Shown here in pieces: positions 28,237 through 48,328 of a DNA stretch of 64,000 bases; within the stretch, counting starts at the first letter, position 1; each line of letters opens with the position of its first letter. The stretch comes from Sphingomonadales bacterium (lineage in GTDB: Bacteria > Pseudomonadota > Alphaproteobacteria > Sphingomonadales > Sphingomonadaceae). The translations under genes and the position numbers were made by a program. The stretch lies in assembly GCA_027486895.1 (NCBI GenBank), contig JAIXOE010000028.1, forward strand, positions 25,437 through 89,436, read 5' to 3'. The notes beneath the pieces are model-generated. The model was not told the DNA's origin, searched no databases, and saw nothing but the letters and a program-made list of their open reading frames with translations.

Positions 28237-31425
<3,189 letters not shown>

Positions 31426-32664: not shown

Positions 32665-33899
32665 GGATTAGTCCCCCTGTCGGCAGCGGCGTCAAAGCGT
32701 CCGGTCAGCCGGTCAATTTCTGTTTGAAGGTCACGGTAGCGGATGACCGCATCGAGCCATTCGGCCTGCGCCTGAATGATCGCGTCGGCTGCACCCTGCA
32801 TGTCGCGGAAATTGAAGCCGCCGCGCGCATAGCCTTCGCGCACCTGCCGGAGCGCCTTGGTCGTCTGCGGATAGACTTCAAGGACGATGGCGTCGGCGCG
32901 GGCACGTGCGGCGTCGGCTTCGGCCCCAAGGCTAGCAAGACGGCGGAGCCGGTCAAGCCTTTGCCCTTCGGCGGTAAGCTCGATCCGAAGCTTCTCGGCT
33001 TGCGCCCGTGCGATATTGCCCTGATTGCGGTCGAAGCGTCCCAGCGGGATAGTCACGCCCGCAACCACCGCGACATCATTGGTCCCGCGAAGGAAGCGTG
33101 CGCCGCCGCTGAGCGTGTAATCCTGTCGCGTCCGAGTCTGTTCAACCGCCACTGCCGCCGAAGCCCGCGCAGCTGCTGCCTGAGCAAGCTCAGCGTCGGC
33201 AACCGCAAGCTGCCGTGCCGCTGGTATGCCGGATAACACCTCGCCCTCAGTCTCAACTTCTTCGGCTCTGCCATTCCAGAACGCAGCAAGTGCCGCGCGC
33301 GCGCCTTCGCGCCTCGCTTGCGCCTCGGTCAGATTGAGCCGCGCTTGCGTCACCCGCGCCGACGCGCTCGTCTCGACGAACAGCGGATCTTTATATCCGC
33401 GCACACGGCGCAATGCTTCCCGCTGCATTTCGACTTCGACACCAAGCCGCGTTTCCGCGATCTCGACAACATAGCCTGCGATCACAACGTCGAGAAACGC
33501 ACGCTGGACGGCGCTGACAAGTTCAAGCCGTGCGACCCGCGACGATGCTTGGGCAACGCCGATGTCACGTTCTGCATAGGCAACACGCGCGTCCCGTTTG
33601 CCACCGCGTTCAATCGTCTGGCTATAGGTGCCAGTGATCTCAGCTTGGCCAAAGACATTATAGGGTCCGCTGCCGATAAGGTTTTCGCCTTCGACGGTGA
33701 CGGTTGGGTTGGGGCGGACGCCCGCTTGGACTCGGCCAGCTTGTGCGGCAGCGACCGCCGCCTCATTGGCGCGGATCGACGGCGCGGCCTCAATGGCCTT
33801 GGCAATGGCTTCATCCAGCGTGAACGGCTCCGCAAAGGCAGCCGTAGCCGGAATGGCCAGCGCCGCCGCCAGCAAGGCGGTGCGCAATTTGGGAAACAT
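32661..33899 (-). CDS. czcC: TolC family outer-membrane factor
   Basis: Signal peptide, RPNPT, IERGGKR, IPLGRFDRNQGNI; first gene of the CBA cluster. Confidence 0.9.
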   Translation of the reverse strand: MFPKLRTALLAAALAIPATAAFAEPFTLDEAIAKAIEAAPSIRANEAAVAAAQAGRVQAGVRPNPTVTVEGENLIGSGPYNVFGQAEITGTYSQTIERGGKRDARVAYAERDIGVAQASSRVARLELVSAVQRAFLDVVIAGYVVEIAETRLGVEVEMQREALRRVRGYKDPLFVETSASARVTQARLNLTEAQARREGARAALAAFWNGRAEEVETEGEVLSGIPAARQLAVADAELAQAAAARASAAVAVEQTRTRQDYTLSGGARFLRGTNDVAVVAGVTIPLGRFDRNQGNIARAQAEKLRIELTAEGQRLDRLRRLASLGAEADAARARADAIVLEVYPQTTKALRQVREGYARGGFNFRDMQGAADAIIQAQAEWLDAVIRYRDLQTEIDRLTGRFDAAADRGTNP

Positions 33900-33908
33900 A
33901 TTAAAACT

Positions 33909-33970
33909 CCTGAACCGGATGACACGTTAAAGGGTCGGGCGCGACGCCCGCCCTAACGGCGCGGTTCAGG
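33909..33970 (-). promoter_or_regulatory. SD-sequestering mRNA hairpin upstream of czcC
   Basis: CCTGAACCG / CGGTTCAGG 9-bp perfect stem linking the upstream ORF stop to the czcC SD, with an inner GC-rich hairpin at 33932-33953. Confidence 0.65.
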
Positions 33971-34304
33971 CAGAGGGTGGTTCGGTGGGGGGTGCCTGAC
34001 TGAAAGAGGTCAGCGGGTTTGCACGGTGGAATGACAACAGCGCCTTCGCGGAGGCCGCAACGAGCGCAATGTCAGTCGTCCGTGCGTCCAGCGCGGTCGG
34101 GCAGTGATGATGGTGAAGGCTTTCACCCGCACCTTCATGCGAGGGTGCTTCGTCGCCGTGATAGTCAGTCATCGCGTCATGACCAAAGCTAACGCCGTGT
34201 TCTGTGTGATGGCTTGCCGGTTCCTCATGTGCGACCGCAGGCGCATGGATCGTGCTTGCGACAAGCGCGAAAACAAGAATCAAGCGGGCGAGCAAATACT
34301 TCAC
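33966..34304 (-). CDS. Small secreted His-rich protein ending PPTEPPSA (CzcI-like / leader candidate)
   Basis: GTG start with a GAGGA SD, signal peptide, HHHHC at residues 64-68, C-terminal proline motif. Confidence 0.7.
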   Translation of the reverse strand: MKYLLARLILVFALVASTIHAPAVAHEEPASHHTEHGVSFGHDAMTDYHGDEAPSHEGAGESLHHHHCPTALDARTTDIALVAASAKALLSFHRANPLTSFSQAPPTEPPSA

Positions 34305-34348
34305 AAGTCCTCGCTTAGTCGTGGCTCCCGGTTTGGGCAAATAGTTCG

Positions 34349-35143
34349 TCATTCGGAAGGGGCTTCAATTGCACGGCGCAAGTCGTCGGGAACAGGCATC
34401 GGTTGAAAAGCGCTGACGTTCGAACGCCCGGTATTACCGACCGGGATGCGTCCGGTCAGCGCGCCCAAAGGCGCAAGCGCGAGCCGGACAAGTTGCCCTA
34501 CCGTCTCACGCCAGTCGCGTTGTTCGACCGCAAAGCCGAGCATCGACACATGACTGGCCAGATGCAGCCCCAAATGCGGCTGCGATACGATGTGCGCTCG
34601 TTCGAGGTGCAGCCATGCAGTGGCCTGCTCCCCGGACGCTCGTGCGTTGCGAAATAAGGTCATTTCATCCGCGATGACGCGGCGCATCGGCAGCGTCCGC
34701 GCAAGCCCGCGCCATCGCCGCTGCCTGTGCGAATAGAAAATCTGGGCAAACCCCCAAATGAACGGGGTCAATATTCCGGCAGAAATTTCGACGTTATCGC
34801 TATAATGTGTCCCGCCACCGGCATCCGGCGCAATCGTAATCCAATGGTCCCACTTGGGAATAAGCGTGCTGTAGCCATTGTCGCGCAACCGCTTTGGCCA
34901 TTCGCCGGTTTCAGGCTCGTGGAGCGAGGTCACAATCCACTGCGTCCCGAAAGGGATAAACCCGAACAGACGCAACTTGACCTGATAGCGCCCGCCGGGC
35001 TGAAAGGCGTCGAGCGAGGTTTCGCCAACAGGAATGAAGCACACCATCGGCCATGCAATATGCTGCAACAGGGGCGCGGTCTGAACCTCTGCCCAAACGG
35101 TCGCGGTCGGCAGGTCGATCCTAGTCGAGCGGGAAACTTTCAT
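34349..35143 (-). CDS. SRPBCC-like domain fused to DUF3703
   Basis: Real start is ATG 35143 (ATGA overlap). N-terminal SRPBCC-like part; C-terminal HLERAHIVSQ and GRIPVGNTGRSNVSAFQPMPVP. Confidence 0.7.
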   Translation of the reverse strand: MKVSRSTRIDLPTATVWAEVQTAPLLQHIAWPMVCFIPVGETSLDAFQPGGRYQVKLRLFGFIPFGTQWIVTSLHEPETGEWPKRLRDNGYSTLIPKWDHWITIAPDAGGGTHYSDNVEISAGILTPFIWGFAQIFYSHRQRRWRGLARTLPMRRVIADEMTLFRNARASGEQATAWLHLERAHIVSQPHLGLHLASHVSMLGFAVEQRDWRETVGQLVRLALAPLGALTGRIPVGNTGRSNVSAFQPMPVPDDLRRAIEAPSE

Positions 35144-35766
35144 GCTGCAACCGACCGCAATTCGGCGTTCGCCTGCCGGAACACCTGAACGCCGCCAGTG
35201 AGCGCAAGTCCCGCCATGATCGAGGCAACAATCAGGTCGGGCCATGCGCTGCCGGTCCCAAAAACGCCAAGCGCTGCCAGCATCACAGCGACATTGCCAA
35301 TGGCGTCGTTGCGCGAGCATATCCAGACCGAGCGCATGTTCGCATCGCCGGTGCGGTAACGGTAAAGCATCAAGGCCACACCAACATTGGCTGCTAGCGC
35401 CAACGCGCCGATTGCGCCCATCATGGTCGGGTCCGGTTCGGTACCGTTGATGAAAGCAAGCACCGCGCTGGCAAAAACCCAGGCGGCAAAGCCAAGCATG
35501 AACAGCGATTTGAGCAATGCCGCCCGCGCCCGCCATGCCAGGGCTGCCCCGACGACCGCCAGACTGACTGCATAGTTCGCAGCATCGCCAAGAAAATCGA
35601 GCGCGTCGGCTTGAAGCGCGCGGCTGTCCGCCGCCGCGCCTGCACCCATTTCCACGAAGAACATGGCGGCATTGACGATTAGCGCAATCCAGAGAATGCG
35701 CCGCCAGCGCGGATCGGCCTTGGCCGTTTCGCTCCCGCAGGCGCTTTCGCAACAACTGTCCGCCAT
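35140..35766 (-). CDS. Short CDF-type cation transporter lacking the C-terminal cytoplasmic domain
   Basis: N-terminal CCESAC, ALQADALDFLGD and WICSRNDAIGN; 208 aa. Confidence 0.8.
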   Translation of the reverse strand: MADSCCESACGSETAKADPRWRRILWIALIVNAAMFFVEMGAGAAADSRALQADALDFLGDAANYAVSLAVVGAALAWRARAALLKSLFMLGFAAWVFASAVLAFINGTEPDPTMMGAIGALALAANVGVALMLYRYRTGDANMRSVWICSRNDAIGNVAVMLAALGVFGTGSAWPDLIVASIMAGLALTGGVQVFRQANAELRSVAA

Positions 35767-35802
35767 TCAACATCCTTCTCGACAAATCCCGAGTCGGACA
35801 TC

Positions 35803-35833
35803 TATCTACACCCTGTAGCAACTACAGGGTCAA
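35803..35833 (-). promoter_or_regulatory. MerR-type promoter/operator (CadR/PbrR-like)
   Basis: TTGACC-19bp-TAGATA on the minus strand with a perfect dyad ACCCTGTAG-caa-CTACAGGGT (35810-35830). Confidence 0.88.
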
Positions 35834-35850
35834 GCAGTAAGGATTGGGCA

Positions 35851-36258
35851 GTGAAAATCGGCGAACTCGCGAGTGCAACGGCAACCAAGGTCGAGACGGT
35901 GCGCTACTATGAAAAGATCGGCCTGCTGCCTCCGCCTGCGCGCACATCGGGGAATTACCGTGCCTATGGCAGCGAACATCTTGCCCGCCTGTCATTCATT
36001 CGCCGCGCGCGTGATCTCGGCTTCACGCTGGAAGCTGTGCGGGAATTGCTCACGCTGTCGGACGACAAGGCACAATCGTGCGAGGCAGTCGATGGCATCG
36101 CCCGCGTCCACCTCACCGAAATCGACCGCAAGGTTACTGATTTGACCGCGCTCCGCAACGAACTCGACCGTGTGATCGGCTCCTGCCGCCACGGGACGGT
36201 CGCCGATTGCAAAATCATCGAAACATTGGGGCCAAGAGTAAGAGCCAACATCGTTTAG
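35851..36258 (+). CDS. MerR family regulator, three Cys (CadR/PbrR-like)
   Basis: VETVRYYEKIGLL HTH; Cys in SCEAV and in C-x7-C (CRHGTVADC). Confidence 0.9.
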   Translation: MKIGELASATATKVETVRYYEKIGLLPPPARTSGNYRAYGSEHLARLSFIRRARDLGFTLEAVRELLTLSDDKAQSCEAVDGIARVHLTEIDRKVTDLTALRNELDRVIGSCRHGTVADCKIIETLGPRVRANIV

Positions 36259-36274
36259 CCTCTCGCTGCGCCGT

Positions 36275-36469
36275 TCAAAACATCTCCAACTGATTGCGCA
36301 TCGGGTCCCAAAACCCGATATCCAACGCTCGTTGGCCCCGCTTGGGTTGCATCGGCTGATTGGCAAGCGAGCCAAGCCGCTCCCCCATGCTGACGGGCGC
36401 AACACCCACCATCACAATCTGGTCGGGGTCGGGCGGCGTTATCCGCGGTAACGTCTTGCGCTTGGCCAT
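36275..36469 (-). CDS. Small hypothetical protein (element backbone)
   Basis: MAKRKTLPRITPP..DIGFWDPMRNQLEMF; co-oriented immediately after the DUF3768 gene. Confidence 0.55.
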   Translation of the reverse strand: MAKRKTLPRITPPDPDQIVMVGVAPVSMGERLGSLANQPMQPKRGQRALDIGFWDPMRNQLEMF

Positions 36470-36482
36470 TATCTGCACTCGC

Positions 36483-36884
36483 TCAATATTCGTCGGCAAG
36501 CATGATGATCAGCACCCGCCGCGTGACGGCGGCGTTTGCCGCGTCCTCGCTGGCAAATTGCAATTCACGGTCATAATAATCCAGTTTCCAGAACACCCGT
36601 GCGCGCTCATCCTCCCGAACCCTCGGGCGCTCGGTCGTCCACCGCCCATTGCCAAGCTGATAGACGCACCCAAAATCGCGTTCGCCATGCGGGTCGTTAT
36701 CCTCGGTAAAAGCGTCGAATGTTTCGATAAGTTCACGAACGCGAGACTGGTCAGCATCGGACAGCGACCGAAAACCGACAGTAGCAACGACGGTGCAAGC
36801 AACCCCCATCGCCTGCCGCGCAAGGTCGTTCAAACGCGCAATCCGTGCTGCCTGTTCACGCGCTGAAATAGGAGCCGCGCTCAT
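36483..36884 (-). CDS. DUF3768 domain protein
   Basis: RIARLNDLAR, FDAFTEDNDPHGERDFG, VFWKLDYYD and RVLIIMLADEY. Confidence 0.88.
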   Translation of the reverse strand: MSAAPISAREQAARIARLNDLARQAMGVACTVVATVGFRSLSDADQSRVRELIETFDAFTEDNDPHGERDFGCVYQLGNGRWTTERPRVREDERARVFWKLDYYDRELQFASEDAANAAVTRRVLIIMLADEY

Positions 36885-37093
36885 TGCACTCGCCCTTGTC
36901 TTTGGTTGGCAGTCCGCGCGTGGCGTTCTTCGCAAATCAAGACCAAAGCGCCAAAATCTTCGCGCTCACCCAGCCGCTCGGCAATCCTCTGAACGCACTC
37001 CAGCGGCAAACCATTTTCGTTGGCCAAATCACGCAAATAATCGTCGCGGCACTCCGCGCCGCAAGCACGATAGTTCAAAAGCAAATCGGTCAT
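36881..37093 (-). CDS. Small hypothetical protein (element backbone)
   Basis: 70 aa with DYLRDLANENG..EDFGALV; ATGA overlap with the DUF3768 gene; AAGGAAGG SD-like sequence upstream. Confidence 0.6.
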   Translation of the reverse strand: MTDLLLNYRACGAECRDDYLRDLANENGLPLECVQRIAERLGEREDFGALVLICEERHARTANQRQGRVQ

Positions 37094-37612
37094 CTCAAAC
37101 CTTCCTTGTAGCGAAGCCGCACTGGCTGCGGCATGCGGCTCTGCCTTCCGGCGAGGATGGGAGGGGGAGGGAAAGCTGAATCGCTACCCTTGGCGCGGGC
37201 CAGCGGGCGCAAAGCGACCGCCACACGGGGGTGGCTATTCTGCTTTGGGAACGAGAGGGCAAAGCCCTTGGCGTTCCCACACGATCAATTGAACGGAGGC
37301 GGTTAGCCTCCCCTAGCCGCCACGCGGAAAAACGACTGCACCCTTGCACAAAACGACGCCAGCCGGACGCCATGCGCCCGGGCCTGTGGGCCAGCGGGCA
37401 TTCGGCAAGGAGAGTGGCAAGAGCGCCAGCGGGTCAGCTCAAGAACGCCGCACCCTAGGGAGCGCGAAGCGCGGGGAAGAGTGCGACCCTAAAACCTCCC
37501 GCTCGTCGAACTCCGCTCCCGATCGTCACCCGAATGGGCCGGGACTACAGGCCCGGTCTGCGCCAGCGGATAGAGCGGGTTGCCCGTAAGGGCAGCGCCT
37601 TAGCTTTATAAT

Positions 37613-38002
37613 TCAACTAGGTTCAAAGGCCTCGATAATCGGACATCGCCCATCGCCGCCCTCGGCACATTCATCCGCCAAGCGCCGAAGCGATTTTCGC
37701 GCGGACTGGAGTGCCGCAATTCTCTCGTCAATCTCAGCTATCCGCTTGTTTGCGAGTTCGCGCGCCCTCGCCCGGTCTTCGGTAGCGTCCAAGGCAAGCA
37801 GTTCGCCGATCTCTGCAAGCGTGAATCCTCCGGCCTGTGCCGCTCTGATAAAACGCAGACGGCTGACGTCAGTTTCGTCATACCGCCGAACCCCGCCGTT
37901 ACGTTCTGGCTCAACGAGCAGGCCTCGCCGCTGGTAAAAGCGGACGGTTTCGACGCCCACTCTGCCCGCCGCTGCCAATTTTCCTATCGTCATTGCATTC
38001 AT
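37613..38002 (-). CDS. MerR family regulator, two Cys (CueR-like loop)
   Basis: TIGKLAAAGRVGVETVRFYQRRGLL and C-x7-C (CAEGGDGRC); no Cys at the MerR C82-equivalent position. Confidence 0.88.
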   Translation of the reverse strand: MNAMTIGKLAAAGRVGVETVRFYQRRGLLVEPERNGGVRRYDETDVSRLRFIRAAQAGGFTLAEIGELLALDATEDRARARELANKRIAEIDERIAALQSARKSLRRLADECAEGGDGRCPIIEAFEPS

Positions 38003-38005
38003 CGC

Positions 38006-38037
38006 TTGACTCCGTACTATGCTACGGAACCTATATA
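38006..38037 (+). promoter_or_regulatory. MerR-type promoter/operator of mer-like sequence
   Basis: TTGACT, dyad TCCGTA-N6-TACGGA, extended 19-20 bp spacer to TATATA. Confidence 0.85.
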
Positions 38038-38072
38038 GGCTGGGTGACGTTATCTGCCAACAAGGAACACCT

Positions 38073-38849
38073 ATGACCCAAGCCGCAATTTCAACGCCAG
38101 CGAAAGCCAGTGCCGCCGCCAAAACCGCCACCATCTATCGCATGGTGATGCCGAACCATACCTGCCCTTATGGTCTGAAGGCGCTCGACCTGCTCAAGCG
38201 CAAGGGCTTTACTGTCGAGGACCGCTGGCTGACAGCGCGCGAAGAAACCGACGCGTTCAAAGCCAAGCACAACGTCCAGACGACACCGCAAATCTTCATC
38301 AGCGGCGAGCGTATCGGCGGACATGACGATCTCCGCCGCTACCTCGGCCTGTCAGTCGCCGATCCGAAGGCGACCACCTATCAGCCGGTCATAGCGCTGT
38401 TTTCAATGACCGCCTTGATGGCGCTGGCTGCGAGTTTCGCGGTCTATGGCTCGCCTTTCACCGGGCGCGCCGCCGAATGGTTCATCGCCTTCAGCATGAT
38501 CATCCTCGCGATGCTCAAGCTACAGAATGTCGACAAGTTTGCGACAATGTTCCTGAACTACGACCTGCTCGCGAAACGCTGGGTGCCTTACTCGCGCATC
38601 TATCCATTTGCCGAAGGGCTGGCTGGCGTCCTTATGGCGGCGGGCGCGCTCAACTGGCTGTCGATCCCGGTCGCTTTGTTTATTGGCGGCATTGGTGCGG
38701 CATCGGTATTCAAAGCGGTCTACATCGACAAGCGCGAGCTAAAATGCGCCTGCGTCGGTGGCGATAGCAATGTGCCGCTGGGCTTTGTCTCGCTCACCGA
38801 GAATGTGATGATGGTCGGGATGGCCATTTGGATGATTTTCGCACATTAA
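38073..38849 (+). CDS. Glutaredoxin-MauE/DoxX fusion membrane protein
   Basis: TCPYG and TTPQIFISGERIGG (Grx fold) followed by a TM region with YDLLAKRW and CACVGG. Confidence 0.82.
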   Translation: MTQAAISTPAKASAAAKTATIYRMVMPNHTCPYGLKALDLLKRKGFTVEDRWLTAREETDAFKAKHNVQTTPQIFISGERIGGHDDLRRYLGLSVADPKATTYQPVIALFSMTALMALAASFAVYGSPFTGRAAEWFIAFSMIILAMLKLQNVDKFATMFLNYDLLAKRWVPYSRIYPFAEGLAGVLMAAGALNWLSIPVALFIGGIGAASVFKAVYIDKRELKCACVGGDSNVPLGFVSLTENVMMVGMAIWMIFAH

Positions 38850-38880
38850 GTTCGCGATCTGACAAGCGTTTGGTAGAAGT

Positions 38881-38902
38881 CGCCCGACCAGTTGGCCGGG
38901 CG
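38881..38902. terminator. Hairpin between convergent genes
   Basis: CGCCCG..CGGGCG stem with an inner CCA/TGG pair. Confidence 0.45.
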
Positions 38903-38920
38903 CTTCCTCAATGCAGTTAT

Positions 38921-39073
38921 TTAGTCGTCACAGCAGTCCATTGCCTGCTCGCAACATGCGTCGAGTGCCGCGCAACAGGCGCCCACCGCGTCTGCAACAG
39001 TCGAGGCTTGGGCTGCAAAGGCAGCTGGCGCAACAAAAAGCAGGGCGGCAGCAGCGGCAAAATATTTGGTCAT
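38921..39073 (-). CDS. 50-aa secreted Cys-rich micropeptide with three CC pairs
   Basis: GGAGAG SD, signal peptide ending AFA, mature part AQASTVADAVGACCAALDACCEQAMDCCDD. Confidence 0.65.
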   Translation of the reverse strand: MTKYFAAAAALLFVAPAAFAAQASTVADAVGACCAALDACCEQAMDCCDD

Positions 39074-39163
39074 AAACTCTCTCCGTTGGGAAGCTGGAAT
39101 AGCGTCGCAAAATATCGGCGCTATCAATGATATTCGGGCCAGAAACGCCAACGGTTACAATGT

Positions 39164-39592
39164 TTAATGCTTAGCAAATACGCTCGTTTTACCGGAACCG
39201 AAGGCAATGACGTTATAGCGGTCTGCCGGATATCCCGGCGCTTCCATGCCAGGCGAGCCTAAGGGCATACCAGCAACTGCTAGCCCACGGACACCTTTGG
39301 GCTTTGCTGCCAATACCCGCTTCATATCAGCGACGGGGACATGACCTTCGAAGGCCATGCCGTCGATAAGCGCGGTGTGGCATGATGCGAGGCCAGCAGG
39401 CAATCCGACCCGCCGTTGCAACGCCGGACGGTTCGCATCGTCGATGACTTTGACGCTGCGACCGAACGCCTTGCGGACTTGCGCGGCCCATTTTTCGCAG
39501 CAACCGCAGCCGGGATCACGGTGCATCACTGCCTCGCTTGCCGCCAACGCCGGTGTGGCAACGAGAGCTATTGCCAAAAAGAACTTTCGCAT
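39164..39592 (-). CDS. DUF411 metal-binding periplasmic protein
   Basis: HRDPGCGCCEKW, SCHTA, FEGHVP and GLAVAGMPLGSPGME. Confidence 0.92.
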   Translation of the reverse strand: MRKFFLAIALVATPALAASEAVMHRDPGCGCCEKWAAQVRKAFGRSVKVIDDANRPALQRRVGLPAGLASCHTALIDGMAFEGHVPVADMKRVLAAKPKGVRGLAVAGMPLGSPGMEAPGYPADRYNVIAFGSGKTSVFAKH

Positions 39593-39652
39593 TTTGAATT
39601 TCCTTCAACGAAGAAACGCGGAGAGCCGTCACCAGCCCTCCGCGCCGTCTAC

Positions 39653-39856
39653 TTACTTATGGTCCATGCCACCCATGTCATGGCCTTCATGCTCGTCACC
39701 GGACTTGGCGTCCTTGTCCTTGCAGCAGGCCATCTTGCCATGTTCGTCCTTTTTGCAACAGCAGCACTCCTTTTCAGGGGTAGGTGCTGGATCGGCGGCA
39801 AAGGCAGCGGTGGACATGGTGAGCGCGAGAGCACCCAAAAGATACTTGGTTTTCAT
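39653..39856 (-). CDS. 67-aa secreted Cys/His/Met-rich micropeptide
   Basis: GGAG SD, signal peptide ending AFA, ECCCCKK..MACCK..HEGHDMGGMDHK. Confidence 0.75.
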   Translation of the reverse strand: MKTKYLLGALALTMSTAAFAADPAPTPEKECCCCKKDEHGKMACCKDKDAKSGDEHEGHDMGGMDHK

Positions 39857-39869
39857 GATTTAACTCCGA

Positions 39870-40208
39870 TTATAGATTGAAAAAACAGTGCGCGCCGTGC
39901 CTTCGCGGAGGCGGGATTGGCGGTTTGAGTGCGCCGCCCGACAATTGCGCGCTGGCCGAAAGATTCGGGACCGCGATGACCCGCAAGAGCTGCGTTACGT
40001 CGGCGGTTGCCACGGGCGGAAAGGCACAGGCATGACACGAACGCGCCGCATCGCCACCTTTCTGTCCACCCTTTCCGTCACGATGATCGGGAATGTCCTC
40101 GCAATCCGCCATCATTGCGATTGTTTCTGTTTGAACAGGCGCGGCGCAAATCGGTGCTGCCCGCAGCACGAGCGCAATTGCGAGAAAACAGGCAGCGAGT
40201 ATTTTCAT
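39870..40208 (-). CDS. Small secreted CxxC / polyproline protein (CutF/CruR-like leader candidate)
   Basis: ATG 40208 (ATGA overlap with the PepSY gene), signal peptide, DC at 35-36, CHAC at 58-61, PPIPPPR at 96-102. Confidence 0.65.
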   Translation of the reverse strand: MKILAACFLAIALVLRAAPICAAPVQTETIAMMADCEDIPDHRDGKGGQKGGDAARSCHACAFPPVATADVTQLLRVIAVPNLSASAQLSGGALKPPIPPPRRHGAHCFFNL

Positions 40209-40927
40209 GCCGTGCGCCGCTTGCGCCGAAACGGCCAGCGGATGAACAGTAACACCGAGCCTGCAACGCCGAGGATCAGGCCTCCGATGGCAAATGCCAG
40301 CAGCCACCATGTGTTGAAATTCTCATGGTTCTTCCAATCCATGATGTGGAGGCTCCAGAAAAAATCATAGAGCCGCCATGTGCCGGTGCGAACGGCGGTG
40401 ATTTTCCCGGTATCGACGGCAACAAAAATACTGGTGGCATCGGGGTCAGCATAAGCGATACGCCACGCAGGCAGAGCAGCCCGATATTCAGGGCTTTCAG
40501 TCGTGACGCGCGATGCCTTGGAAACCGGCTTCTCGGCTGACTTCCACGCGGCATTCGCAATGGCCGTTGCTTGGGCGGCACCGACTGGCGGAATTAGCTC
40601 GCCTGTTTGGGCATCGAAGAGTTTGATGCCTTGGGCGGTCGTCACTTCCGCAACCGCGACACTTCCCATCATGTGCCAGTTGATAGCTTGGACCGGCGCT
40701 CCAGCCATTGCGTTTATCTGCGCCGGATCGGCGAACTTGATGCCTGCCGGAATGATCATCACCGTTTCACGGTCTACCAAATGCTCACCGCGCACCTTCT
40801 CGATGGGCAGGAAGCTCATAATTACGCCACTGGCGAACCAGATCAGCAACTGCGCGCCAATAACCAAAGCCAACCATTTGTGGATACGGCTTGCCGTTAG
40901 ATGGATACGGGTGCGTCTGCTGCTCAG
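40205..40927 (-). CDS. PepSY-associated TM helix protein (probable non-canonical CTG start)
   Basis: RIHKWLALVIGAQLLIWFASG and WRLYDFFWSLHIMD. The conserved HKW motif lies upstream of the track's TTG start at 40873. Confidence 0.78.
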   Translation of the reverse strand: MSSRRTRIHLTASRIHKWLALVIGAQLLIWFASGVIMSFLPIEKVRGEHLVDRETVMIIPAGIKFADPAQINAMAGAPVQAINWHMMGSVAVAEVTTAQGIKLFDAQTGELIPPVGAAQATAIANAAWKSAEKPVSKASRVTTESPEYRAALPAWRIAYADPDATSIFVAVDTGKITAVRTGTWRLYDFFWSLHIMDWKNHENFNTWWLLAFAIGGLILGVAGSVLLFIRWPFRRKRRTA

Positions 40928-41850
40928 AACCAGATCCTTATCCCTGCCACAAGGCTGATAGTTTCAGGATCTTCGCCTGAAGCCCGAGAAAAGCGCGCGG
41001 TTGCACCTGTCTGCTTGCGCCATTCCACGCCAATGTAGGGCGCTATTTCCTGCTCGATCTCATAGCGCAGGCGTAACCCGGCTTCGAAATCTGTCAATCC
41101 TGACCCGACACCAATAGCGCGAATGTCCTGAAAAGCGATATTGGCTTCGATCCTCGGCTGCAAAATCAGCGATTGGGTGATCCGCTGGTCGTATGATGCC
41201 TCCAGCCTCGCGCGCACCTCGCCCTTGTTCGAGACAAAGCCAGCCGCATTCATCTTGAACCAATAGGGGGCTATGCCCTCCACACCGGCGACAAGATAGG
41301 TGCGCGACGGGTCGGGCTTTATGTCATACCGGACACCGGCTTGCAGGTTCCAATAGGGCGCTATTGCGCGCGAATAGAGTGCTTGCAACTCCAGATCGTC
41401 AATGCGTTCACCGAATGCGCCTTCGCCTTCAAACTTCACCCCAAACCGGTTGATGTTACCGCCGGTAAAGGCCTCGCCTTCAAACCGGTAGCTTTCTTCA
41501 CCCTTTTGGAAGCCGACTTCGAGCAGGTCGATGGTCACCAACGAATAGCCCATGCCACCTACTTCATAAGCCAGCTCCTTGCGAGACTTTGCCATAATGT
41601 CAGCGCCAAATATCGCATCAGCCGCATGATCCTCTGGCGGGGCTGGCGCTGGCGCATTACCGACCTCGTCGCTCGGAGGCATTTCAGCCGCACTTGAACC
41701 CATGTCATGACCGGCATGGGGATCGTTTTCGGGAGGTGGCTTGGTAGGCTCGGCCTTGACGGCGGGCATGTCATGCCCCTGATGCCCCGATTGTGCGAAC
41801 GCGGGGGTTGCCAGCAATAATGCGGCAGGAAGCAGCAACAAGGTGTTCAT
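40924..41850 (-). CDS. copB: Copper resistance outer-membrane protein B
   Basis: His/Met-rich N-terminus, YSRAIAPYWNLQAGVR, GLRLRYEI..APYIGV, terminal WF. Confidence 0.93.
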   Translation of the reverse strand: MNTLLLLPAALLLATPAFAQSGHQGHDMPAVKAEPTKPPPENDPHAGHDMGSSAAEMPPSDEVGNAPAPAPPEDHAADAIFGADIMAKSRKELAYEVGGMGYSLVTIDLLEVGFQKGEESYRFEGEAFTGGNINRFGVKFEGEGAFGERIDDLELQALYSRAIAPYWNLQAGVRYDIKPDPSRTYLVAGVEGIAPYWFKMNAAGFVSNKGEVRARLEASYDQRITQSLILQPRIEANIAFQDIRAIGVGSGLTDFEAGLRLRYEIEQEIAPYIGVEWRKQTGATARFSRASGEDPETISLVAGIRIWF

Positions 41851-43622
41851 TGCCCTTCCTCTTCATGCCGCACAGTGACAACACGGAACATTCCAGCGTG
41901 CATGTGCATAAGCATATGGCAGTGGAACGCCCAGTCGCCCATCGCGTCCGCCGTGAAATCGAATGTCACCTTGGCACCCGGCAGTACGTTGACCACGTTC
42001 TTACGCGGATATCGCCCTTTCTGTCCGTTCACCACTTCGAAGAAATGGCCGTGCAGATGGATCGGGTGCGGCATCATGGTGTGGTTGATGAGGTTCACCC
42101 GCACCCGCTCATTGTGGCGGAACGGCAATGGCTCAGTCTTCTCGCTATATTTTTCGCCGTCCATCGACCACATATAGCGCTCCATATTGGCCGTAAGGTG
42201 GACGTCGATTTCACGCGATGGCGTACGCTGGTCGGGATTAGGTTCAAGCGCGCGGAGCTGGCTAAGCGTCAGCACGCGGTGCGGCACTTTCTCCAAACCG
42301 GTTGGCCGCTCGCTGTTCCGATCCAATGGCATCGGCGCAAGACTGGCTACACCCGGTCCCATCTTCACCTGCGGCGCGACCGACGGGTCACGCATGTTCA
42401 TAGAACTGTGATCCATGCTTCCCATTGCAGCCATTTCTTCCGGCATCATATTGCTATGGTCCATGCCTGCCATGTCGCCGCCACCGCTGCCATGATCCAT
42501 GCCCATGTCTTTCATGGTGAGCAAAGGACGTTCACGAAGCTCGGGTATTGGTGCGGTCATGCCCATTTGCGGAGCCAAAGTTGCGCGGCACTGGCCTGAA
42601 CGGTCAATCGATTCAGCGATAAATGCGTAAGGAATCGCTTCTTTAGGCTCAATGATCACGTCCCACGTTTCGGCAACCGCAATCTGGAACTCGTCGGTTT
42701 CAACAGGCGTTAGCGGCAGCCCATCCGACGCAACAATCGTCATCGGCAGGCCCGGAACGCGAATGTTGAAATTGCTCATCGCCGCTGCATTGATAATGCG
42801 CAGCCGCACCCGCTCGCCGGGTTTAAAAATGCCGGTCCAATTGCCCATGCTGTCATGGCCGTTGATCAGATAGTGATAATAAGCGCCGGTGACATCGGCG
42901 ATGTCGGTCGGGTCCATCAACATCTGGCCCCACATCATGCGTTCGGACAACGGCTGATCTTCGCCTTTGGCAAGGCCAGCAAAGGTCTGTTTACGCTTGT
43001 TGAAATAGCCTGCCTTCTGCTTCTGCTTGGTAAAGTTCACATGCGCGTGCGCGAAACTCCAGTCCGACAACACCAGGACATGTTCACGGTCATAAGCAAT
43101 CGGGTCTTTGCCCGCAGGATCGACGATCAACGCGCCATACATCCCCATCGCTTCCTGCATATGCGAATGGCTGTGATACCAATAGGTGCCGTGCTGCTTC
43201 ATCGGAAATTCGTAAGTGAAGCTCTCGCCGGGGCCGATGCCGGGATAGCTTACGCCGGGAACTCCATCCATGTGGAAAGGAAGCAGCATCCCATGCCAGT
43301 GAACCGACGTATCTTCGTCGAGCGTGTTGCGCACCACGAGCTTTACATTCTGGCCTTCACGCAGGCGAATGAGTGGTCCCGGTAGCGTCCCGTTGATGGT
43401 ATAGGCATGGCCGGTTTTCTTGCCGATCTTGAACGCCGATTGCCCGACGCTGACTTCGATATTATCGCCCGATAACATGCCGGGTTTACCGGCGAGGCTG
43501 TGCAACCCATGCGACCCACTTTTTGCCCAAGCGGGAAATAAAGGCGCAAGCGCCATCCCACCGCTCGCAAGCGCTGCACCGCGCAAAAGGTGTCGGCGAT
43601 CTACCGGAGTTTTCAGGGTCAT
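41847..43622 (-). CDS. copA: Copper resistance multicopper oxidase
   Basis: Tat signal DRRHLLRG; Cu motifs HWHG, WYHSH, HPIHLHGH and HCHMLMHMHAGM; Met-rich insert. Confidence 0.96.
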   Translation of the reverse strand: MTLKTPVDRRHLLRGAALASGGMALAPLFPAWAKSGSHGLHSLAGKPGMLSGDNIEVSVGQSAFKIGKKTGHAYTINGTLPGPLIRLREGQNVKLVVRNTLDEDTSVHWHGMLLPFHMDGVPGVSYPGIGPGESFTYEFPMKQHGTYWYHSHSHMQEAMGMYGALIVDPAGKDPIAYDREHVLVLSDWSFAHAHVNFTKQKQKAGYFNKRKQTFAGLAKGEDQPLSERMMWGQMLMDPTDIADVTGAYYHYLINGHDSMGNWTGIFKPGERVRLRIINAAAMSNFNIRVPGLPMTIVASDGLPLTPVETDEFQIAVAETWDVIIEPKEAIPYAFIAESIDRSGQCRATLAPQMGMTAPIPELRERPLLTMKDMGMDHGSGGGDMAGMDHSNMMPEEMAAMGSMDHSSMNMRDPSVAPQVKMGPGVASLAPMPLDRNSERPTGLEKVPHRVLTLSQLRALEPNPDQRTPSREIDVHLTANMERYMWSMDGEKYSEKTEPLPFRHNERVRVNLINHTMMPHPIHLHGHFFEVVNGQKGRYPRKNVVNVLPGAKVTFDFTADAMGDWAFHCHMLMHMHAGMFRVVTVRHEEEGQ

Positions 43623-43667
43623 AGGGAATCCATATTTAGGTGCTGACCATGATACGCAGGTCAAAGA

Positions 43668-44231
43668 CTAATCCCTCAATAATTCGTTCAAGCTTGCGCG
43701 CGCACGGTAAAGCCGGGTTTCGACGGTTTTCTCGGTAACGCCCAACGCTTCGGCAGCCTCGGCCTGCGACATGCCTTCTATAGCGCGCAGGATGAGCGCT
43801 TCTCGGAGTTTCAAGGGTAAGTAACCGATGGCAGCACTCACGCGGCCCAATTCTGCGCGGTCGCCTGCTTCTGTTTCGGGCGAAGCGCCGTCGCTTGCCA
43901 AGTCGAAGGCGTCTTCGATGGGCTGCGCACGGGTAAAGAAGGAACGCACCGCTCGCCGCCTTGCCCAATCGCGGCATTTGTTGATCGCAATTCGCGAAAT
44001 CCAGAGTTTGAAAGGCCGCTCGCGATCATATCGCTTCAACGCGGCGAAGGCTGAGACGAAACTCTCCTGCGTGACATCGAGCGCCTCTTCGCTATCGCGG
44101 ATTGTGTTGCGAACAAGCCGATATACTGGGTCTCGATAGCGCCGCAGGAACTCGCGATACGCTCGTTCCTGCCCACCGAGTGCGAGTGCCGCCAGCTCGC
44201 CATCGCTACACTGGCCTAAATCGAGGCTCAC
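43668..44231 (-). CDS. ECF sigma factor (CnrH-like)
   Basis: DVTQESFVSAF, WISRIAINKCRD and TVETRLYRAR; last gene of a Y-X-H-like triad. Confidence 0.9.
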   Translation of the reverse strand: MSLDLGQCSDGELAALALGGQERAYREFLRRYRDPVYRLVRNTIRDSEEALDVTQESFVSAFAALKRYDRERPFKLWISRIAINKCRDWARRRAVRSFFTRAQPIEDAFDLASDGASPETEAGDRAELGRVSAAIGYLPLKLREALILRAIEGMSQAEAAEALGVTEKTVETRLYRARASLNELLRD

Positions 44232-44668
44232 CGCGCTTCGGCGGTCAGCGCCTTGACCACGGTCTTGTCAAAGCGCCGCGCTTGGTCGGGATTCATGACA
44301 GCGCGCATCTCGAACAGATGTTCTAGCGTGGATTTTTGCATTTCGCCCATGACATGATGAACATGATCGACCGCCGCCGTAACCTTGGGGCCATAGCCAT
44401 GTTCGGCCTCAATTGCTTCGGCAAGCCGCGCGTTGGCCGCGCGCATGTCAAGCTCCAGCGCCTTCTTTCGCACGGCAAAGCGCGCCTCTATGGCTTCGAT
44501 TTTCGCTTCCTGAGCGGCGTCCAGCTTCAATTCATTGTGCAAAAAGGCATGAAGCTCGCTCTCGCTCTTGCGCGGCTGCTCGCTGAATGTTCGTGCCGCA
44601 TATACTCCCGCTACGGCTGCGATGAAGGCAATCAGCGCAATCAGCCCGATCCGCCACCCCGAACGCAT
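44228..44668 (-). CDS. Periplasmic heavy-metal sensor (CnrX-like)
   Basis: N-terminal TM, HAFLH (H-x3-H) and EHLFEM (H-x3-M), matching the CnrX metal site. Confidence 0.85.
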   Translation of the reverse strand: MRSGWRIGLIALIAFIAAVAGVYAARTFSEQPRKSESELHAFLHNELKLDAAQEAKIEAIEARFAVRKKALELDMRAANARLAEAIEAEHGYGPKVTAAVDHVHHVMGEMQKSTLEHLFEMRAVMNPDQARRFDKTVVKALTAEAR

Positions 44669-44931
44669 CAAAGCAAATCCAGCAAAGTCGATGGCGCGAG
44701 CGCGGTTTCTGCAATCACCAAATCACCACCAGCCGCGCGCGCCGGGGTTGGCAGTATAGAGCCGCCTGCATAGCCGATGCCAAGGGCAACAAACGCAGCA
44801 GCCGACAAGAGCCGCGATGTCGCGCGTGCTTCGCTTTGGCGTTCGGCCAAGCCAGCCAGAACGGCGTCATCAAGCTGCAACAACCTCGCCGGGACCGACA
44901 TTGCCCCTAGCCTTTGCAATAAATCGTCCAT
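44668..44931 (-). CDS. Anti-sigma factor (CnrY-like)
   Basis: 87 aa, single TM, C-terminal LAPSTLL; first gene of the triad. Confidence 0.72.
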   Translation of the reverse strand: MDDLLQRLGAMSVPARLLQLDDAVLAGLAERQSEARATSRLLSAAAFVALGIGYAGGSILPTPARAAGGDLVIAETALAPSTLLDLL

Positions 44932-44960
44932 CGAATGGTCCTCATGTTCTTAGTCCCTCT

Positions 44961-44988
44961 TATACGCAGCGCGGCCCTCTCGCCCTCA
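44961..44988 (-). promoter_or_regulatory. ECF (CnrH-type) promoter for the cnrYXH-like/copAB operon
   Basis: TGAGGG-N16-CGTATA on the minus strand. Confidence 0.7.
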
Positions 44989-44996
44989 AGAAAAAT

Positions 44997-45024
44997 TGAG
45001 GGGCGTTGCCGCGACATGCGTATT
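44997..45024 (+). promoter_or_regulatory. ECF (CnrH-type) promoter for copCD
   Basis: TGAGGG-N16-CGTATT; same spacing as the divergent copy. Confidence 0.7.
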
Positions 45025-45058
45025 GTTACATATGACCCACTGTTTTGGAGATTTCTAA

Positions 45059-45436
45059 ATGCCCCGCAAGTTTCTAGCAATCGCAGCCGCGCTGCTCGTC
45101 GCCTTACCCGGCGCGGCAATGGCGCATGTCAAGCTGACTGCCTCGACACCAACTGCAAACGCCACGGTCACTAAGCCCGTGCGCATCGAGCTCAAATTCA
45201 GCGAAAAGCTGATCGCGCCAACCATCAAGACCGAAGTTATCATGACTGGAATGCCGGGTATGAAGGATCACCCGCCAATGCCGATGCCGCATAATTCGCA
45301 AATGGGCAAAGACGGTAAGTCGATGACGTTGATCCTCAAAAAGGCCCTGCCGTCGGGCAGCTACACCGTAAAATGGTCGGCAGCGGGCGCAGACAGCCAC
45401 CGCATGGGCAGCGAGTTCAGCTTCAAGGTCAAATAG
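45059..45436 (+). CDS. copC: Copper-binding periplasmic protein CopC
   Basis: Signal peptide then HVKL..STP, Met-rich loop, Y.VKW..ADSHRM. Confidence 0.92.
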   Translation: MPRKFLAIAAALLVALPGAAMAHVKLTASTPTANATVTKPVRIELKFSEKLIAPTIKTEVIMTGMPGMKDHPPMPMPHNSQMGKDGKSMTLILKKALPSGSYTVKWSAAGADSHRMGSEFSFKVK

Positions 45437-45439
45437 GGC

Positions 45440-46357
45440 ATGACCGACTGGGGGTTGGTTGCTATTCGGTTCGCGCTTTATGCGGACCTGATGCTGCTCG
45501 TCGGATTGGCGGCGTTTCCGCTCTACAGTCTGACCCAAGCCGAGCGCGACGACCATGCAATTCTGCCACTTGGCGGAAGGCTGGCTTGGCTGGCGGTGGC
45601 GGCATTGCCGCTGTCGGCAGCGGGTTTCGCAGTATCCAGCGCCGCTATGATGGGCGTGCCAGTAAGCGCGCTCGACTTTCCAATGCTGGTGTCGATGGCA
45701 GGCGACACCGAACAAGGCGCGGCATTCCTCGTCAGGATGGCGGCGCTTGTAGCGACTCTCGCCGCGCTCGTCCTGCTGCGACCGTCCCAAACGCCTCGAT
45801 ACGTCGTAGCTATGGTAGGTGGTTCGATTATGCTGGCGACGCTGTTGTGGTCCGGTCACGCCGCCGCCACCGAAGGCGCGCTTGGCACCATCCACCGGAT
45901 CAGCGACATCGCGCATATGATTGCCGCAGCTTTATGGATTGGGGGAATAGCGGCCTTCTGGATTTTGCTCGCTCGCCCCGTGCAAGGCGAGGCGCATGTT
46001 ACACTCGCCGCCCGTTCGCTTGCAAACTTCGCGCGGGTGGGAACGGTGGCAGTCGCAATTATCGTGCTCACCGGCCTGTTCAACGGTTACGCGATTCTGG
46101 GCGCGGACATAACGACGCTGTTCCAATCGACCTACGGCCTCCTGTTGGCGGCCAAGCTCCTGCTATTTGCCGCAATGCTAAGCCCTGCCGCCAACAATCG
46201 TTGGAGATTGACGCCTGCGCTGGAACGCGCGGCGGCAAGCGGCGACTCCGAAGGCGCGTGGACCCGCTTGCGCATCTCGGTCGCGCTGGAAGCCGCTGCC
46301 GGTGCCGCTGTCTTGGCGCTGGTCGCTTGGTTGGGGACGCTCGCGCCAGCAAACTGA
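45440..46357 (+). CDS. copD: Copper homeostasis membrane protein CopD
   Basis: LWSGHAAA, AHMIAAALWIGG, YGLLLAAKLLLF and WLGTLAP. Confidence 0.92.
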   Translation: MTDWGLVAIRFALYADLMLLVGLAAFPLYSLTQAERDDHAILPLGGRLAWLAVAALPLSAAGFAVSSAAMMGVPVSALDFPMLVSMAGDTEQGAAFLVRMAALVATLAALVLLRPSQTPRYVVAMVGGSIMLATLLWSGHAAATEGALGTIHRISDIAHMIAAALWIGGIAAFWILLARPVQGEAHVTLAARSLANFARVGTVAVAIIVLTGLFNGYAILGADITTLFQSTYGLLLAAKLLLFAAMLSPAANNRWRLTPALERAAASGDSEGAWTRLRISVALEAAAGAAVLALVAWLGTLAPAN

Positions 46358-46717
46358 TGCGCCCAAAGTGAAGCGGGACATTCGTGGAATGAAACTTTGC
46401 ATGCGGCGACAACGTCCGGCTCGGGCGCAGATCGCGCCCTCCACTGACTGAATTTGCGCGTGCGTTGGCGAATTTTGTCAATGATAGAGCAAGGTCACCG
46501 CGAACAGCAAAAAATTTTGCCCACTTTGCTCCGCCAAGCGTCACCGTCCATAGTCGGTTCTATTCTTTCATAGCCATCCCTTGTCGTTCGCAGCCCACTG
46601 CCGCTTTTCCTTCGCCTGCGCTCACTGTCCCCAAAAACGCTCTTGCGCGTGCAATTTTCTTTGCCAATTCTCGGCTCATGGGGAGCCAATGACTGTCAAA
46701 GAATGGAACTGCGTCCC

Positions 46718-46924
46718 ATGTCCGAACACGAAAGAATTATCCGCCTCAAGACCGTTTTGTCGCGAACCGGCCTCTCCCGCTCGACGATGTATCGCAAGAT
46801 CGCCGAAGGCACCTTCCCGTGTCAGGTCAGGATCAGTATTCACGGGGCGGGCTGGCGCGAGTCCGCCGTCAACCGCTGGATCGCCGATCCGGTCAGCTTC
46901 CGCAACGAAAGCGCCGTGTCATGA
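46718..46924 (+). CDS. AlpA family phage regulatory protein
   Basis: IIRLKTVLSRTGLSRSTMYRKIAEGTFP..WRES. Confidence 0.9.
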   Translation: MSEHERIIRLKTVLSRTGLSRSTMYRKIAEGTFPCQVRISIHGAGWRESAVNRWIADPVSFRNESAVS

Positions 46925-47115
46925 TTGCGCCGCTTCCTCCCGACCCGATATGCGTGAGGATAAACGACGCTGCTCGCATGATCGGCGTCGGTCGCACCAA
47001 GCTGTATGAGCTGATTGCGACAAACGAGATTGAAGTCGTTAAGCTCGGCAAATCGACGCGCGTTACAACAGCAAGTCTGCGCGCGCTAGTCACGCGGCTT
47101 CGCGCATTGGAGTAG
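46921..47115 (+). CDS. Excisionase-like helix-turn-helix protein
   Basis: VRINDAARMIGVGRTKLYELI; convergent with the integrase. Confidence 0.8.
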   Translation: MIAPLPPDPICVRINDAARMIGVGRTKLYELIATNEIEVVKLGKSTRVTTASLRALVTRLRALE

Positions 47116-48274: not shown

Positions 48275-48328
48275 AAAGTTCGATTCCCTGACAGGAAACC
48301 ATACCGCCAAAACCGGGGGTATTTCGGT

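Follow-up and report, generated by a model that had tools for sequence, protein, structure and literature searches.

What does a very small gene, set between a putative copper-sensing leader and copG, contribute to bacterial copper resistance? The question is raised by a 64,000-nt stretch of DNA from a member of the Sphingomonadales (NCBI GenBank assembly GCA_027486895.1, contig JAIXOE010000028.1, positions 25,437 to 89,436 of the forward strand; hereafter the window, numbered from its first nucleotide), in which a minus-strand open reading frame (ORF) of 67 codons encodes a peptide with a predicted signal sequence and conspicuous runs of Cys, His and Met. The gene is genuine. Judged by sequence, its product belongs to an unannotated but widespread family of predicted exported Cys/His/Met peptides that is dedicated to copper-resistance loci and can be counted among the small copper-binding proteins already known from the periplasm. 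The reading that we favour, and hold to be probable, is that the peptide is a Sec-exported, unmodified and disordered periplasmic Cu(I)-thiolate buffer or chaperone of 47 aa, whose synthesis would be gated by nascent-chain copper sensing.

The peptide gene and its family

The ORF runs from ATG to TAA and translates as MKTKYLLGALALTMSTAAFA/ADPAPTPEKECCCCKKDEHGKMACCKDKDAKSGDEHEGHDMGGMDHK (slash, predicted cleavage site). An original prediction, made from the letters alone, had given its 67-aa length, its coordinates and its Cys, His and Met counts correctly, as the ORF list and our translation confirm. The parts of the gene are as follows.

39653..39856, minus strand: Cys-rich exported-peptide gene, stop codon included (ORF list, translation, homologues, dN/dS)
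39797..39856, minus strand: predicted Sec-type signal peptide, residues 1-20 (read from the sequence; pattern kept in family alignments A1 and A2)
39755..39766, minus strand: CCCC run, Cys31-34, of which the last three Cys form the family-wide invariant CCC (A1, A2; codon table)
39722..39727, minus strand: second Cys pair, Cys44-45, with the near-invariant G40-K-M42 just ahead (A1, A2)
39656..39691, minus strand: His/Met tail HEGHDMGGMDHK, H56 near-invariant and H59 invariant (A1, A2)

The signal region has the layout of a type-I Sec signal, with a basic MKTK segment, a hydrophobic core of 13-16 residues and an AFA/AD cleavage site; inspection of the N-terminus revealed neither a twin-arginine motif nor a lipobox, and the n, h and c regions and the AxA site are conserved family-wide (A1, A2). 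The mature part (47 aa, 5.1 kDa, pI 5.4) contains six Cys (CCCC and CC), four His and three Met, with 43% charged residues and no aromatic ones (aromaticity 0). AlphaFold2, given a 53-sequence alignment, did not predict an autonomous fold (pLDDT 63, pTM 0.16), which is consistent with a peptide that is disordered until metal-bound. The tail carries the pattern H.GH[DAEN]M. Read in all six frames, the 64-kb window contains only three instances of it, one in this tail, as HxGHDM, and two in the N-terminus of the outer-membrane copper resistance protein CopB, as GHQGHDM and DPHAGHDM.

Homologues are numerous. Searching with the peptide sequence by itself gave 128 clusters at 90% identity. A profile run against 1.84 billion representatives matched 88 family clusters at 50% identity, and a broader family profile returned 710 clusters at 90% identity; all named members are annotated ‘hypothetical protein’. 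The common layout begins with the signal peptide and its AxA site; an Ala/Pro-rich spacer connects these to CCC(C), which is separated from CC by 7-9 residues that usually include G-K-M; a Lys/Asp/Glu-rich linker of 10-25 residues then leads to H-x-G-H, usually followed by D-M. C32, C33, C34, C44, C45 and H59 are invariant or nearly so, with C33, C34, C44/45 and H59 counted as invariant; every invariant position holds a ligand for soft metals. The family can do without the first Cys of the CCCC run, and the conserved core thus comprises five Cys rather than six. The original prediction had named loss of Cys conservation among the findings that would tell against it; the Cys proved to be the most conserved residues of all. 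Variation elsewhere is considerable: in some variants the order of the Cys blocks is swapped (CC...CCC(C)), in two (P0162, P0196) the tail is expanded to MDH/MNH repeats, and distant members carry the CopB version of the tail motif, DPHAGHDM.

For the mature part, a comparison of 47 distinct coding sequences gives a dN/dS of 0.17 (median dS 1.3), and the codons of the conserved Cys alternate between TGC and TGT; together these values indicate that selection acts at the protein level. A spurious ORF or overlapping-frame artefact is ruled out by dN/dS and conservation, and the overlapping plus-strand ORFs at 39357..39863 and 39416..39880 are unsupported. Some database ‘homologues’ (P0180, P0183, P0135) are frameshifted reads of the peptide gene, in which the signal peptide is followed by the +1 frame (...RRAAAARRTIMARWPAART...); they reflect assembly or sequencing indels and are not variants. 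The frame that they match is:

39649..39834, minus strand: alternative frame matching the frameshifted database entries

Neither the whole peptide, nor its mature part, nor the leader ORF described below matched any family in Pfam, even at E≤10, or in NCBIfam; the sole hit of these scans, to Asr, is meaningless (E 0.007; 17 bits, where the cut-off is 50). Searched as a profile against the sequences in the PDB, the peptide gave chance matches only (E>0.3). Our search of the literature on periplasmic metallothioneins, consecutive cysteines and sphingomonad cop systems under extracytoplasmic function (ECF) sigma factors gave no description of the family.

The close subfamily is restricted to the Sphingomonadales (52 genome loci in Novosphingobium, Sphingorhabdus, Sphingopyxis, Sphingobium, Sphingomonas and Porphyrobacter), a few bins under other taxon labels being probably contamination, and the exact window peptide was found on 101 contigs. 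A plasmid collection gave neither a DNA match nor a tblastn match to the peptide, a result to which the low-complexity filter may have contributed. In Novosphingobium subterraneum DSM 12447 the cop-leader-peptide-copG block occurs twice on one contig, in identical copies ~225 kb apart (our loci L014 and L016), which hints at a recent island duplication; as a cultured strain with two copies of the block, it would be a convenient experimental host. The gene is also carried by the cultured strains Sphingobium fluviale CHR27, Sphingorhabdus buctiana CGMCC 1.12929 and Novosphingobium sp. APW14.

Leader ORF, hairpin and copper neighbourhood

Another small ORF ends 13 nt before the ATG of the peptide gene, and the GGAG Shine-Dalgarno sequence of the latter lies 2 nt after its TAA.

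39870..40208, minus strand: CutF-like leader ORF, 112 aa (alignment A3; rule-based CutF-like definition of PMC9973294)

The leader has a signal-like N-terminus starting MKILAACFLAIALVLRAAPICAAP, Cys36, a C58-H-A-C61 motif and PPIPPPRR ten codons before the stop, and ends ...KPPIPPPRRHGAHCFFNL, with PPP inside the last 15 residues. CutF-like proteins are defined as having fewer than 150 residues, a Sec signal, a Cys/His metal site, poly-proline in the last 15 residues and a gene lying downstream on the same strand (PMC9973294); the window leader shows the same combination, with a signal-like N-terminus and a Cys/His motif, fewer than 150 residues, terminal poly-proline and the peptide gene following on its strand. 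An ORF of ~100-150 codons ends between -4 and 47 nt before the peptide start in at least 43 of 52 loci, and several of the loci apparently without one have truncated or mutated copies (e.g., TPPP* in L005, SHAC in L022). In an alignment of 26 leaders (A3; 19-68% identical), the shared features are a hydrophobic N-terminus, an invariant Cys (C36), C-(H)-x1-2-C with C61 invariant, and an invariant PPPR placed two to sixteen codons from the stop. The leader is present even in the distant loci L060, L061, L063 and L065, which share no other gene with the window. Judged by these features, the upstream ORF is a CutF/CruR-type predicted copper-sensing leader and the most constant partner of the peptide family. 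The original prediction had seen a CxxC/PPPR leader at this place and had missed its weight.

In Rhodobacter capsulatus the nascent exported CutF binds periplasmic copper via CxxxC, which prolongs the pause at its proline motif; the longer pause permits translation of the next gene, cutO, in a cutF-cutO-cutG operon where cutG is CopG (PMC9973294; 10.1101/2025.02.05.636593). The Bordetella homologue CruR acts with the opposite sign and through Rho (PMC9426467). The R. capsulatus operon (PMC8456105, PMC9973294) and the CruR system (PMC9426467) share one module with the peptide locus, namely an exported Cys leader with C-terminal poly-proline, a periplasmic copper gene and CopG/CutG. Given the order leader, peptide, CopG, the peptide takes the position of cutO, although the target here is a Cys-rich peptide, not a multicopper oxidase (MCO) or a TonB-dependent receptor. 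From this analogy we infer, on what we consider good grounds, that the leader controls peptide synthesis. The main text of the CutF and CruR papers does not mention a Cys-rich small protein among the targets; their neighbour classes are Pfam-based, and the peptide family is without a Pfam model. Some of the downstream neighbours that CutF-like leaders have in the ‘no-Pfam’ class would be explained by the family, and for work on CutF and DUF2946 it would be a presumptive new target of regulation whose very small size comes with ease of assay. A pairing of the PPP codons CCGCCUCCG (anti-Shine-Dalgarno CUCCG) with the Shine-Dalgarno sequence of the peptide was considered and is unsupported by the junction fold of the window.

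The other flank of the peptide gene is also structured. A hairpin begins 7 nt after its stop codon.

39615..39646, minus strand: 14-bp GC-rich hairpin (terminator-like flag; -31.8 kcal/mol, z -4.2)

A hairpin was found at the equivalent place in 45 of 45 distinct loci, including distant ones and those with no downstream gene (median z -4.8; z < -2 in 91%); its position is conserved while the stem sequences differ between loci, and it looks like a family-wide RNA feature of the peptide gene. A canonical intrinsic terminator is only partly supported: with a U-rich tail in 4 of 45 loci, this is not a textbook example. Most likely part of transcription ends at the hairpin, or the hairpin shields the 3' terminus of a short mRNA for leader and peptide.

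Both elements sit in a copper operon, the remaining genes of which are listed in their minus-strand order.

43668..44931, minus strand: CnrYXH-like regulatory trio (Pfam Metal_resist, Sigma70_r2/r4; PDB CnrX/NccX), made up of the next three entries
44931..44668, minus strand: 87-aa ORF, first of the trio
44671..44228, minus strand: CnrX/NccX homologue (PDB E 2e-20)
44231..43668, minus strand: ECF sigma factor (Pfam Sigma70_r2/r4)
41847..43664, minus strand: CopA multicopper oxidase (TIGR01480 E 2.8e-224; Pfam Cu-oxidase domains)
40924..41850, minus strand: CopB outer-membrane copper resistance protein (Pfam PF05275 E 3.7e-82)
40205..40873, minus strand: PepSY_TM-like membrane protein, encoded after copB and before the leader ORF (Pfam PF03929 E 1e-5, which does not reach the gathering score)
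39164..39592, minus strand: CopG/CutG homologue (DUF411) with signal peptide and CGCC (Pfam PF04214 E 1.4e-23; PDB 6WIS E 8.5e-24, CGCC aligned)
38921..39073, minus strand: second small exported Cys peptide, 50 aa, signal peptide and ACCAALDACCEQAMDCCDD (ORF list)

The leader and the peptide gene stand between the PepSY_TM-like gene and copG, which begins 60 nt downstream of the peptide gene. The placement originally proposed, immediately after the leader and before DUF411 with copA and copB upstream on the same strand, is therefore right except in one respect: the peptide gene does not lie at the distal end of the unit, since the second Cys peptide follows DUF411. That peptide (MTKYFAAAAALLFVAPAAFA/AQASTVADAVGACCAALDACCEQAMDCCDD) has three vicinal Cys pairs (CC-x4-CC-x5-CC), gives no match in Pfam, and is kept after DUF411 in ~12 related loci (68-96% identity, 8 distinct sequences). 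The copAB genes of the window are headed by the CnrY/CnrX/CnrH-like trio and not by a CopRS two-component system; most related loci likewise have the trio ahead of copAB or immediately ahead of the peptide. A sigma-70 promoter scan found nothing adjoining the peptide gene; a TATAAT 17 nt upstream of its ATG lies within the last codons of the leader ORF. Metatranscriptome contigs cover the region: X2 (39705..40202) spans leader and peptide, X12 (39484..39746) reads through the 3' hairpin, and X4 (38994..39755) spans the peptide through CopG. Contig X4 joins 39755 back to 38994 (762 back); here the assembler has probably circularised, in error, a short and abundant fragment that holds the peptide, copG and the start of the second Cys peptide.

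Synteny was assessed by tblastn of the window proteins on 53 distinct loci and on Pfam-annotated contigs; the annotated neighbourhoods cover ±6-8 kb, and the window ORFs were Pfam-scanned from ~26 to 48 kb. Most of the 53 loci combine CopA, CopB, PepSY, leader, peptide and CopG, and the PepSY_TM-like gene is syntenic in most related ones. Of the 41 loci whose flank is long enough, 32-33 have CopA and CopB upstream of the peptide and 28 have CnrX-like and ECF genes there. CopG starts at most 150 nt downstream of the peptide in 31 of 50 loci, and at most 1.5 kb downstream in 35. ECF sigma, peptide and CopG genes are contiguous in L002-L004 and L046, and L017 and L034 are similar. Distant members (40-50% identity) keep metal-related neighbours: in L063 the peptide has a Cu P-type ATPase with MerR on one side and an MCO with CopB on the other, and it lies in L065 beside a resistance-nodulation-division (RND) system and DUF411, and in L061 beside cation diffusion facilitator (CDF), P-type ATPase and YHS genes. 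The neighbourhood comparison called for by the original prediction thus found copper or metal resistance around the family loci examined, save L060, where the peptide lies in an island with no recognisable metal gene. Genes for the modifying enzymes DUF692/MNIO, DUF2063 and radical-SAM were found neither in the Pfam-annotated neighbourhoods nor among the window ORFs scanned, and YcaO was absent from the neighbourhoods.

Proposed copper buffering and its alternatives

If the peptide is a periplasmic Cu(I) buffer or chaperone, it would be exported by Sec and its signal peptide cleaved off, after which the CCC(C)...M..CC block would bind Cu(I) in a small thiolate cluster of five to six thiolates and Met42; a Cu4-type cluster would be plausible, purely by inference from the ligand count. 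The HxGHDMxxMxH tail would use His/Met chemistry as in the CopB N-terminus of the same operon, capturing copper or exchanging it with partners, which may also include the CopA oxidase and CopB and most plausibly include CopG with its CxCC cluster. CopG binds a Cys-bridged tetranuclear copper cluster via CxCC and Met, and its suggested roles are the interconversion of Cu(I) and Cu(II) or the delivery of copper to oxidases (PMC7558416); the peptide is a candidate partner or substrate for it. Transcription would be driven by the CnrYXH-type ECF system at the head of the operon. A further level of control would be exerted by the nascent chain of the leader, by analogy with R. capsulatus CutF: the exported CxxC would sense periplasmic copper before PPPR has left the ribosome, and the gene that follows would have its expression modulated, with either sign, through re-initiation, unmasking or Rho polarity. 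By partly ending the short leader-peptide transcript or stabilising its 3' end, the hairpin would yield more peptide than CopG.

Proteins known to buffer copper in the periplasm include Met/His proteins (CusF, PcoE, CopC), the enzymatically modified bufferins and the Tat-exported Csp1. PcoE/SilE and the Met/His-rich regions of CopA, CopB and PcoB are disordered periplasmic His/Met/Asp segments that bind Cu or Ag; to our knowledge they lack cysteine, and they resemble the tail of the peptide only, whereas its invariant core is the Cys block. Vicinal Cys that ligate Cu(I) in an oxidising compartment are found in the CC(x)C motif of Cox17, a eukaryotic protein of CHCH fold, which shares this likeness with the peptide and no relationship.

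The original prediction had proposed an exported metallothionein-like chelator or chaperone. Putative export and metal handling are made more likely by the conserved signal peptide and AxA site, the Cys conservation, the metal context and the lack of a modifying enzyme nearby; the comparison with metallothioneins holds only as an analogy. SmtA/BmtA and MymT resemble the peptide in their size of ~5 kDa, their richness in Cys and His, the absence of aromatics and a fold expected only around a metal-thiolate cluster, and copper-induced MymT binds up to 6 Cu(I), but they are cytoplasmic and have no signal peptide (PMC7558416), and they show no detectable homology to the peptide. Against known metallothionein families the peptide gave no Pfam match at E≤10, no NCBIfam model and no PDB relative, and the family adds a conserved Met/His tail and a predicted dedicated copper-sensing leader ORF. 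The peptide thus appears metallothionein-like in behaviour and a member of no metallothionein family.

Exported Cys-rich copper binders are not without precedent: both the Tat-exported Csp1 and the Sec-exported bufferins precede the peptide (PMC7558416, PMC11626156). Csp1 of methanotrophs is an exported Cys-rich Cu(I) store with Met/His at the entry to its thiolate core, as we envisage for the peptide, yet it is a pre-folded four-helix bundle of ~120 aa that forms tetramers and binds 13 Cu(I) per monomer (PMC7558416); the peptide, with 47 aa, predicted Sec export and predicted disorder, has no twin-arginine motif and no bundle in AlphaFold (pTM 0.16). The bufferins of Caulobacter vibrioides (BufA1/DUF2282, BufA2/BUF_6/12Cys) are the closest functional analogues: like the peptide they are small, Sec-exported, Cys-containing and linked to an ECF sigma factor, and they buffer excess periplasmic copper (PMC11626156). 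Bufferins, however, are folded domains of 60-70 aa that need an adjacent MNIO (DUF692) and a DUF2063 partner, which convert Cys to 5-thiooxazoles (PMC11626156); such genes were not found near the peptide, which has no sequence similarity to bufferins and differs in its vicinal Cys runs, its His/Met tail and the lack of a predicted fold.

Several observations weigh against the buffer or chaperone reading with its leader control. The chief physical objection is that the periplasm is oxidising, and DsbA may be expected to oxidise the six Cys, giving disulfides instead of free Cu(I) ligands. Cys density in the mature peptide is about 13% (12.8%, 6/47; all in CC-type motifs, five of them conserved family-wide), below the 20-30% typical of classical metallothioneins. 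A downstream CopG is absent in ~30% of loci, and CopG is therefore not an obligatory partner. The window leader lies outside Pfam DUF2946 (no match at E≤10), which matches just 1 of the 26 aligned leaders (E 0.026). In the CutF paradigm of R. capsulatus a stem-loop masks the Shine-Dalgarno sequence of the downstream gene. No such masking stem-loop was detected at the leader-peptide junction of the window (minimum free energy -14 kcal/mol, z +0.75), and junction structure with z<-2 occurs in only 7 of 42 loci, all of a PPPRFG* subgroup and modest; the 13-nt gap without a stem-loop departs from the R. capsulatus paradigm. The metatranscriptome contigs are weak evidence of transcription, since RNA-library contigs can include DNA, and the literature search noted above turned up no paper on the family.

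The oxidising periplasm also bears on a different proposal, which we consider unlikely: that the peptide is a thiol/disulfide redox partner, not a chelator, with CCCC and CC cycling between vicinal disulfides and thiols. It would then reduce Cu(II) to Cu(I), or be sacrificed as a thiol buffer that guards the periplasm from mis-oxidation catalysed by copper, and its recycling would fall to thioredoxin-fold CopG. The close linkage of the two genes speaks for such a role, CopG being a thioredoxin-like CxCC protein for which interconversion of Cu(I) and Cu(II) has been proposed (PMC7558416), as does a glutaredoxin-MauE fusion gene that adjoins the cluster in the window, L009, L017 and L034; direct metal ligation is suggested instead by the invariant His and by a Met/His tail like that of CopB, and CopG is missing from ~30% of loci. 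A peptide that cycles between redox states could also bind Cu(I), and the two proposals do not exclude each other.

Quite unlikely, in our estimate, is that the primary metal is Ag(I), Hg(II), Cd(II) or Zn(II), the copper context reflecting the shared soft-metal chemistry of a multi-metal island. Thiolates bind all soft metals, the island that carries the cluster also holds czcCBA-like RND genes, two CDF transporters and two MerR regulators, and L061 and L065 have CDF, RND and ars-like neighbours. The commonest neighbours, by contrast, are copper-specific (CopA oxidase, CopB, CopG and Cys-type CutF-like leaders, which are linked to copper; PMC9973294), and the tail motif is the Met/His copper motif of CopB and CopA.

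The position of the peptide directly after the ECF sigma gene in four to five loci (L002-L004, L046; L017 and L034 similar) and the strong hairpin between it and copG would suit a regulatory element rather than an effector, acting either as a second exported sensor for copG translation or as a periplasmic ligand or competitor for the CnrX-like sensor. We judge this very unlikely: the peptide contains no ribosome-arrest motif, its whole mature sequence is under purifying selection, ~30% of loci have no downstream copG, distant loci have no ECF system, and the hairpin is present also where no gene follows. Least probable of all is a precursor of a modified metallophore, i.e., a bufferin-like ribosomally synthesised and post-translationally modified peptide with Cys turned into thiooxazoles or similar by an enzyme encoded elsewhere in the genome. 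Signal peptide, conserved Cys and copper context do recall the bufferins, small Sec-exported Cys proteins that are controlled by an ECF sigma factor and give protection from copper (PMC11626156). Against this, DUF692/MNIO and DUF2063 genes were found neither in the annotated neighbourhoods (±6-8 kb) nor among the island ORFs scanned, the peptide matches neither DUF2282 nor any NCBIfam bufferin model, it travels on a 27-kb mobile island without such enzymes, and described bufferin clusters keep the precursor beside the MNIO.

The Cu(I) buffer or chaperone can be put in a bolder form, which we offer tentatively and regard as doubtful. The peptides might be the first family of unmodified, Sec-exported metallothionein-type peptides, in which a periplasmic vicinal-Cys Cu(I) mini-cluster (CCC...CC) would relay copper to the tetranuclear cluster of CopG and then to CopA/CopB. 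Peptide synthesis would be turned on co-translationally by a CutF-type nascent-chain sensor, and leader and peptide would form a portable ‘sense-and-sponge’ module on mobile islands. A plain ribosomal thiolate peptide working in the oxidising periplasm would, if true, be a different chemical solution to copper buffering and would raise the question of how its vicinal thiols stay reduced. The family concerned is large (~710 clusters), lacks a domain model and is found on mobile metal-resistance islands in freshwater and wastewater Sphingomonadales.

The mobile island of the window

In the window the cop cluster is cargo of a 26.8-kb island (21591..48482). The island is bounded by a tRNA gene and a direct repeat of its 3' end (17 bp, at 48466, just past a tyrosine integrase), and it further holds the czcCBA-like, CDF and MerR genes mentioned above.

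21591..21666: tRNA-Lys, island boundary, with its 3' end CCTCAGCGTCTACCATT repeated at 48466..48482
22629..25514: MobA/MobL relaxase-helicase
33966..34352, minus strand: second CutF/CzcI-like leader candidate, 128 aa (weak Pfam DUF2946 match, E 0.0011, below cut-off)
37613..38134, minus strand: MerR-family regulator, divergent from the glutaredoxin-MauE gene
38019..38849, plus strand: glutaredoxin-MauE (DoxX-clan) fusion membrane protein
47090..48385: tyrosine integrase

The glutaredoxin-MauE/MerR pair adjoins the cop cluster and is also found near the peptide in L009, L017 and L034; the glutaredoxin-MauE protein could be a link to periplasmic thiol redox handling. The second leader candidate lies directly upstream of a czcC-like outer-membrane gene (33899..32661), is His-rich (HHTEHG, HHHHC) and ends ...APPTEPPSA.

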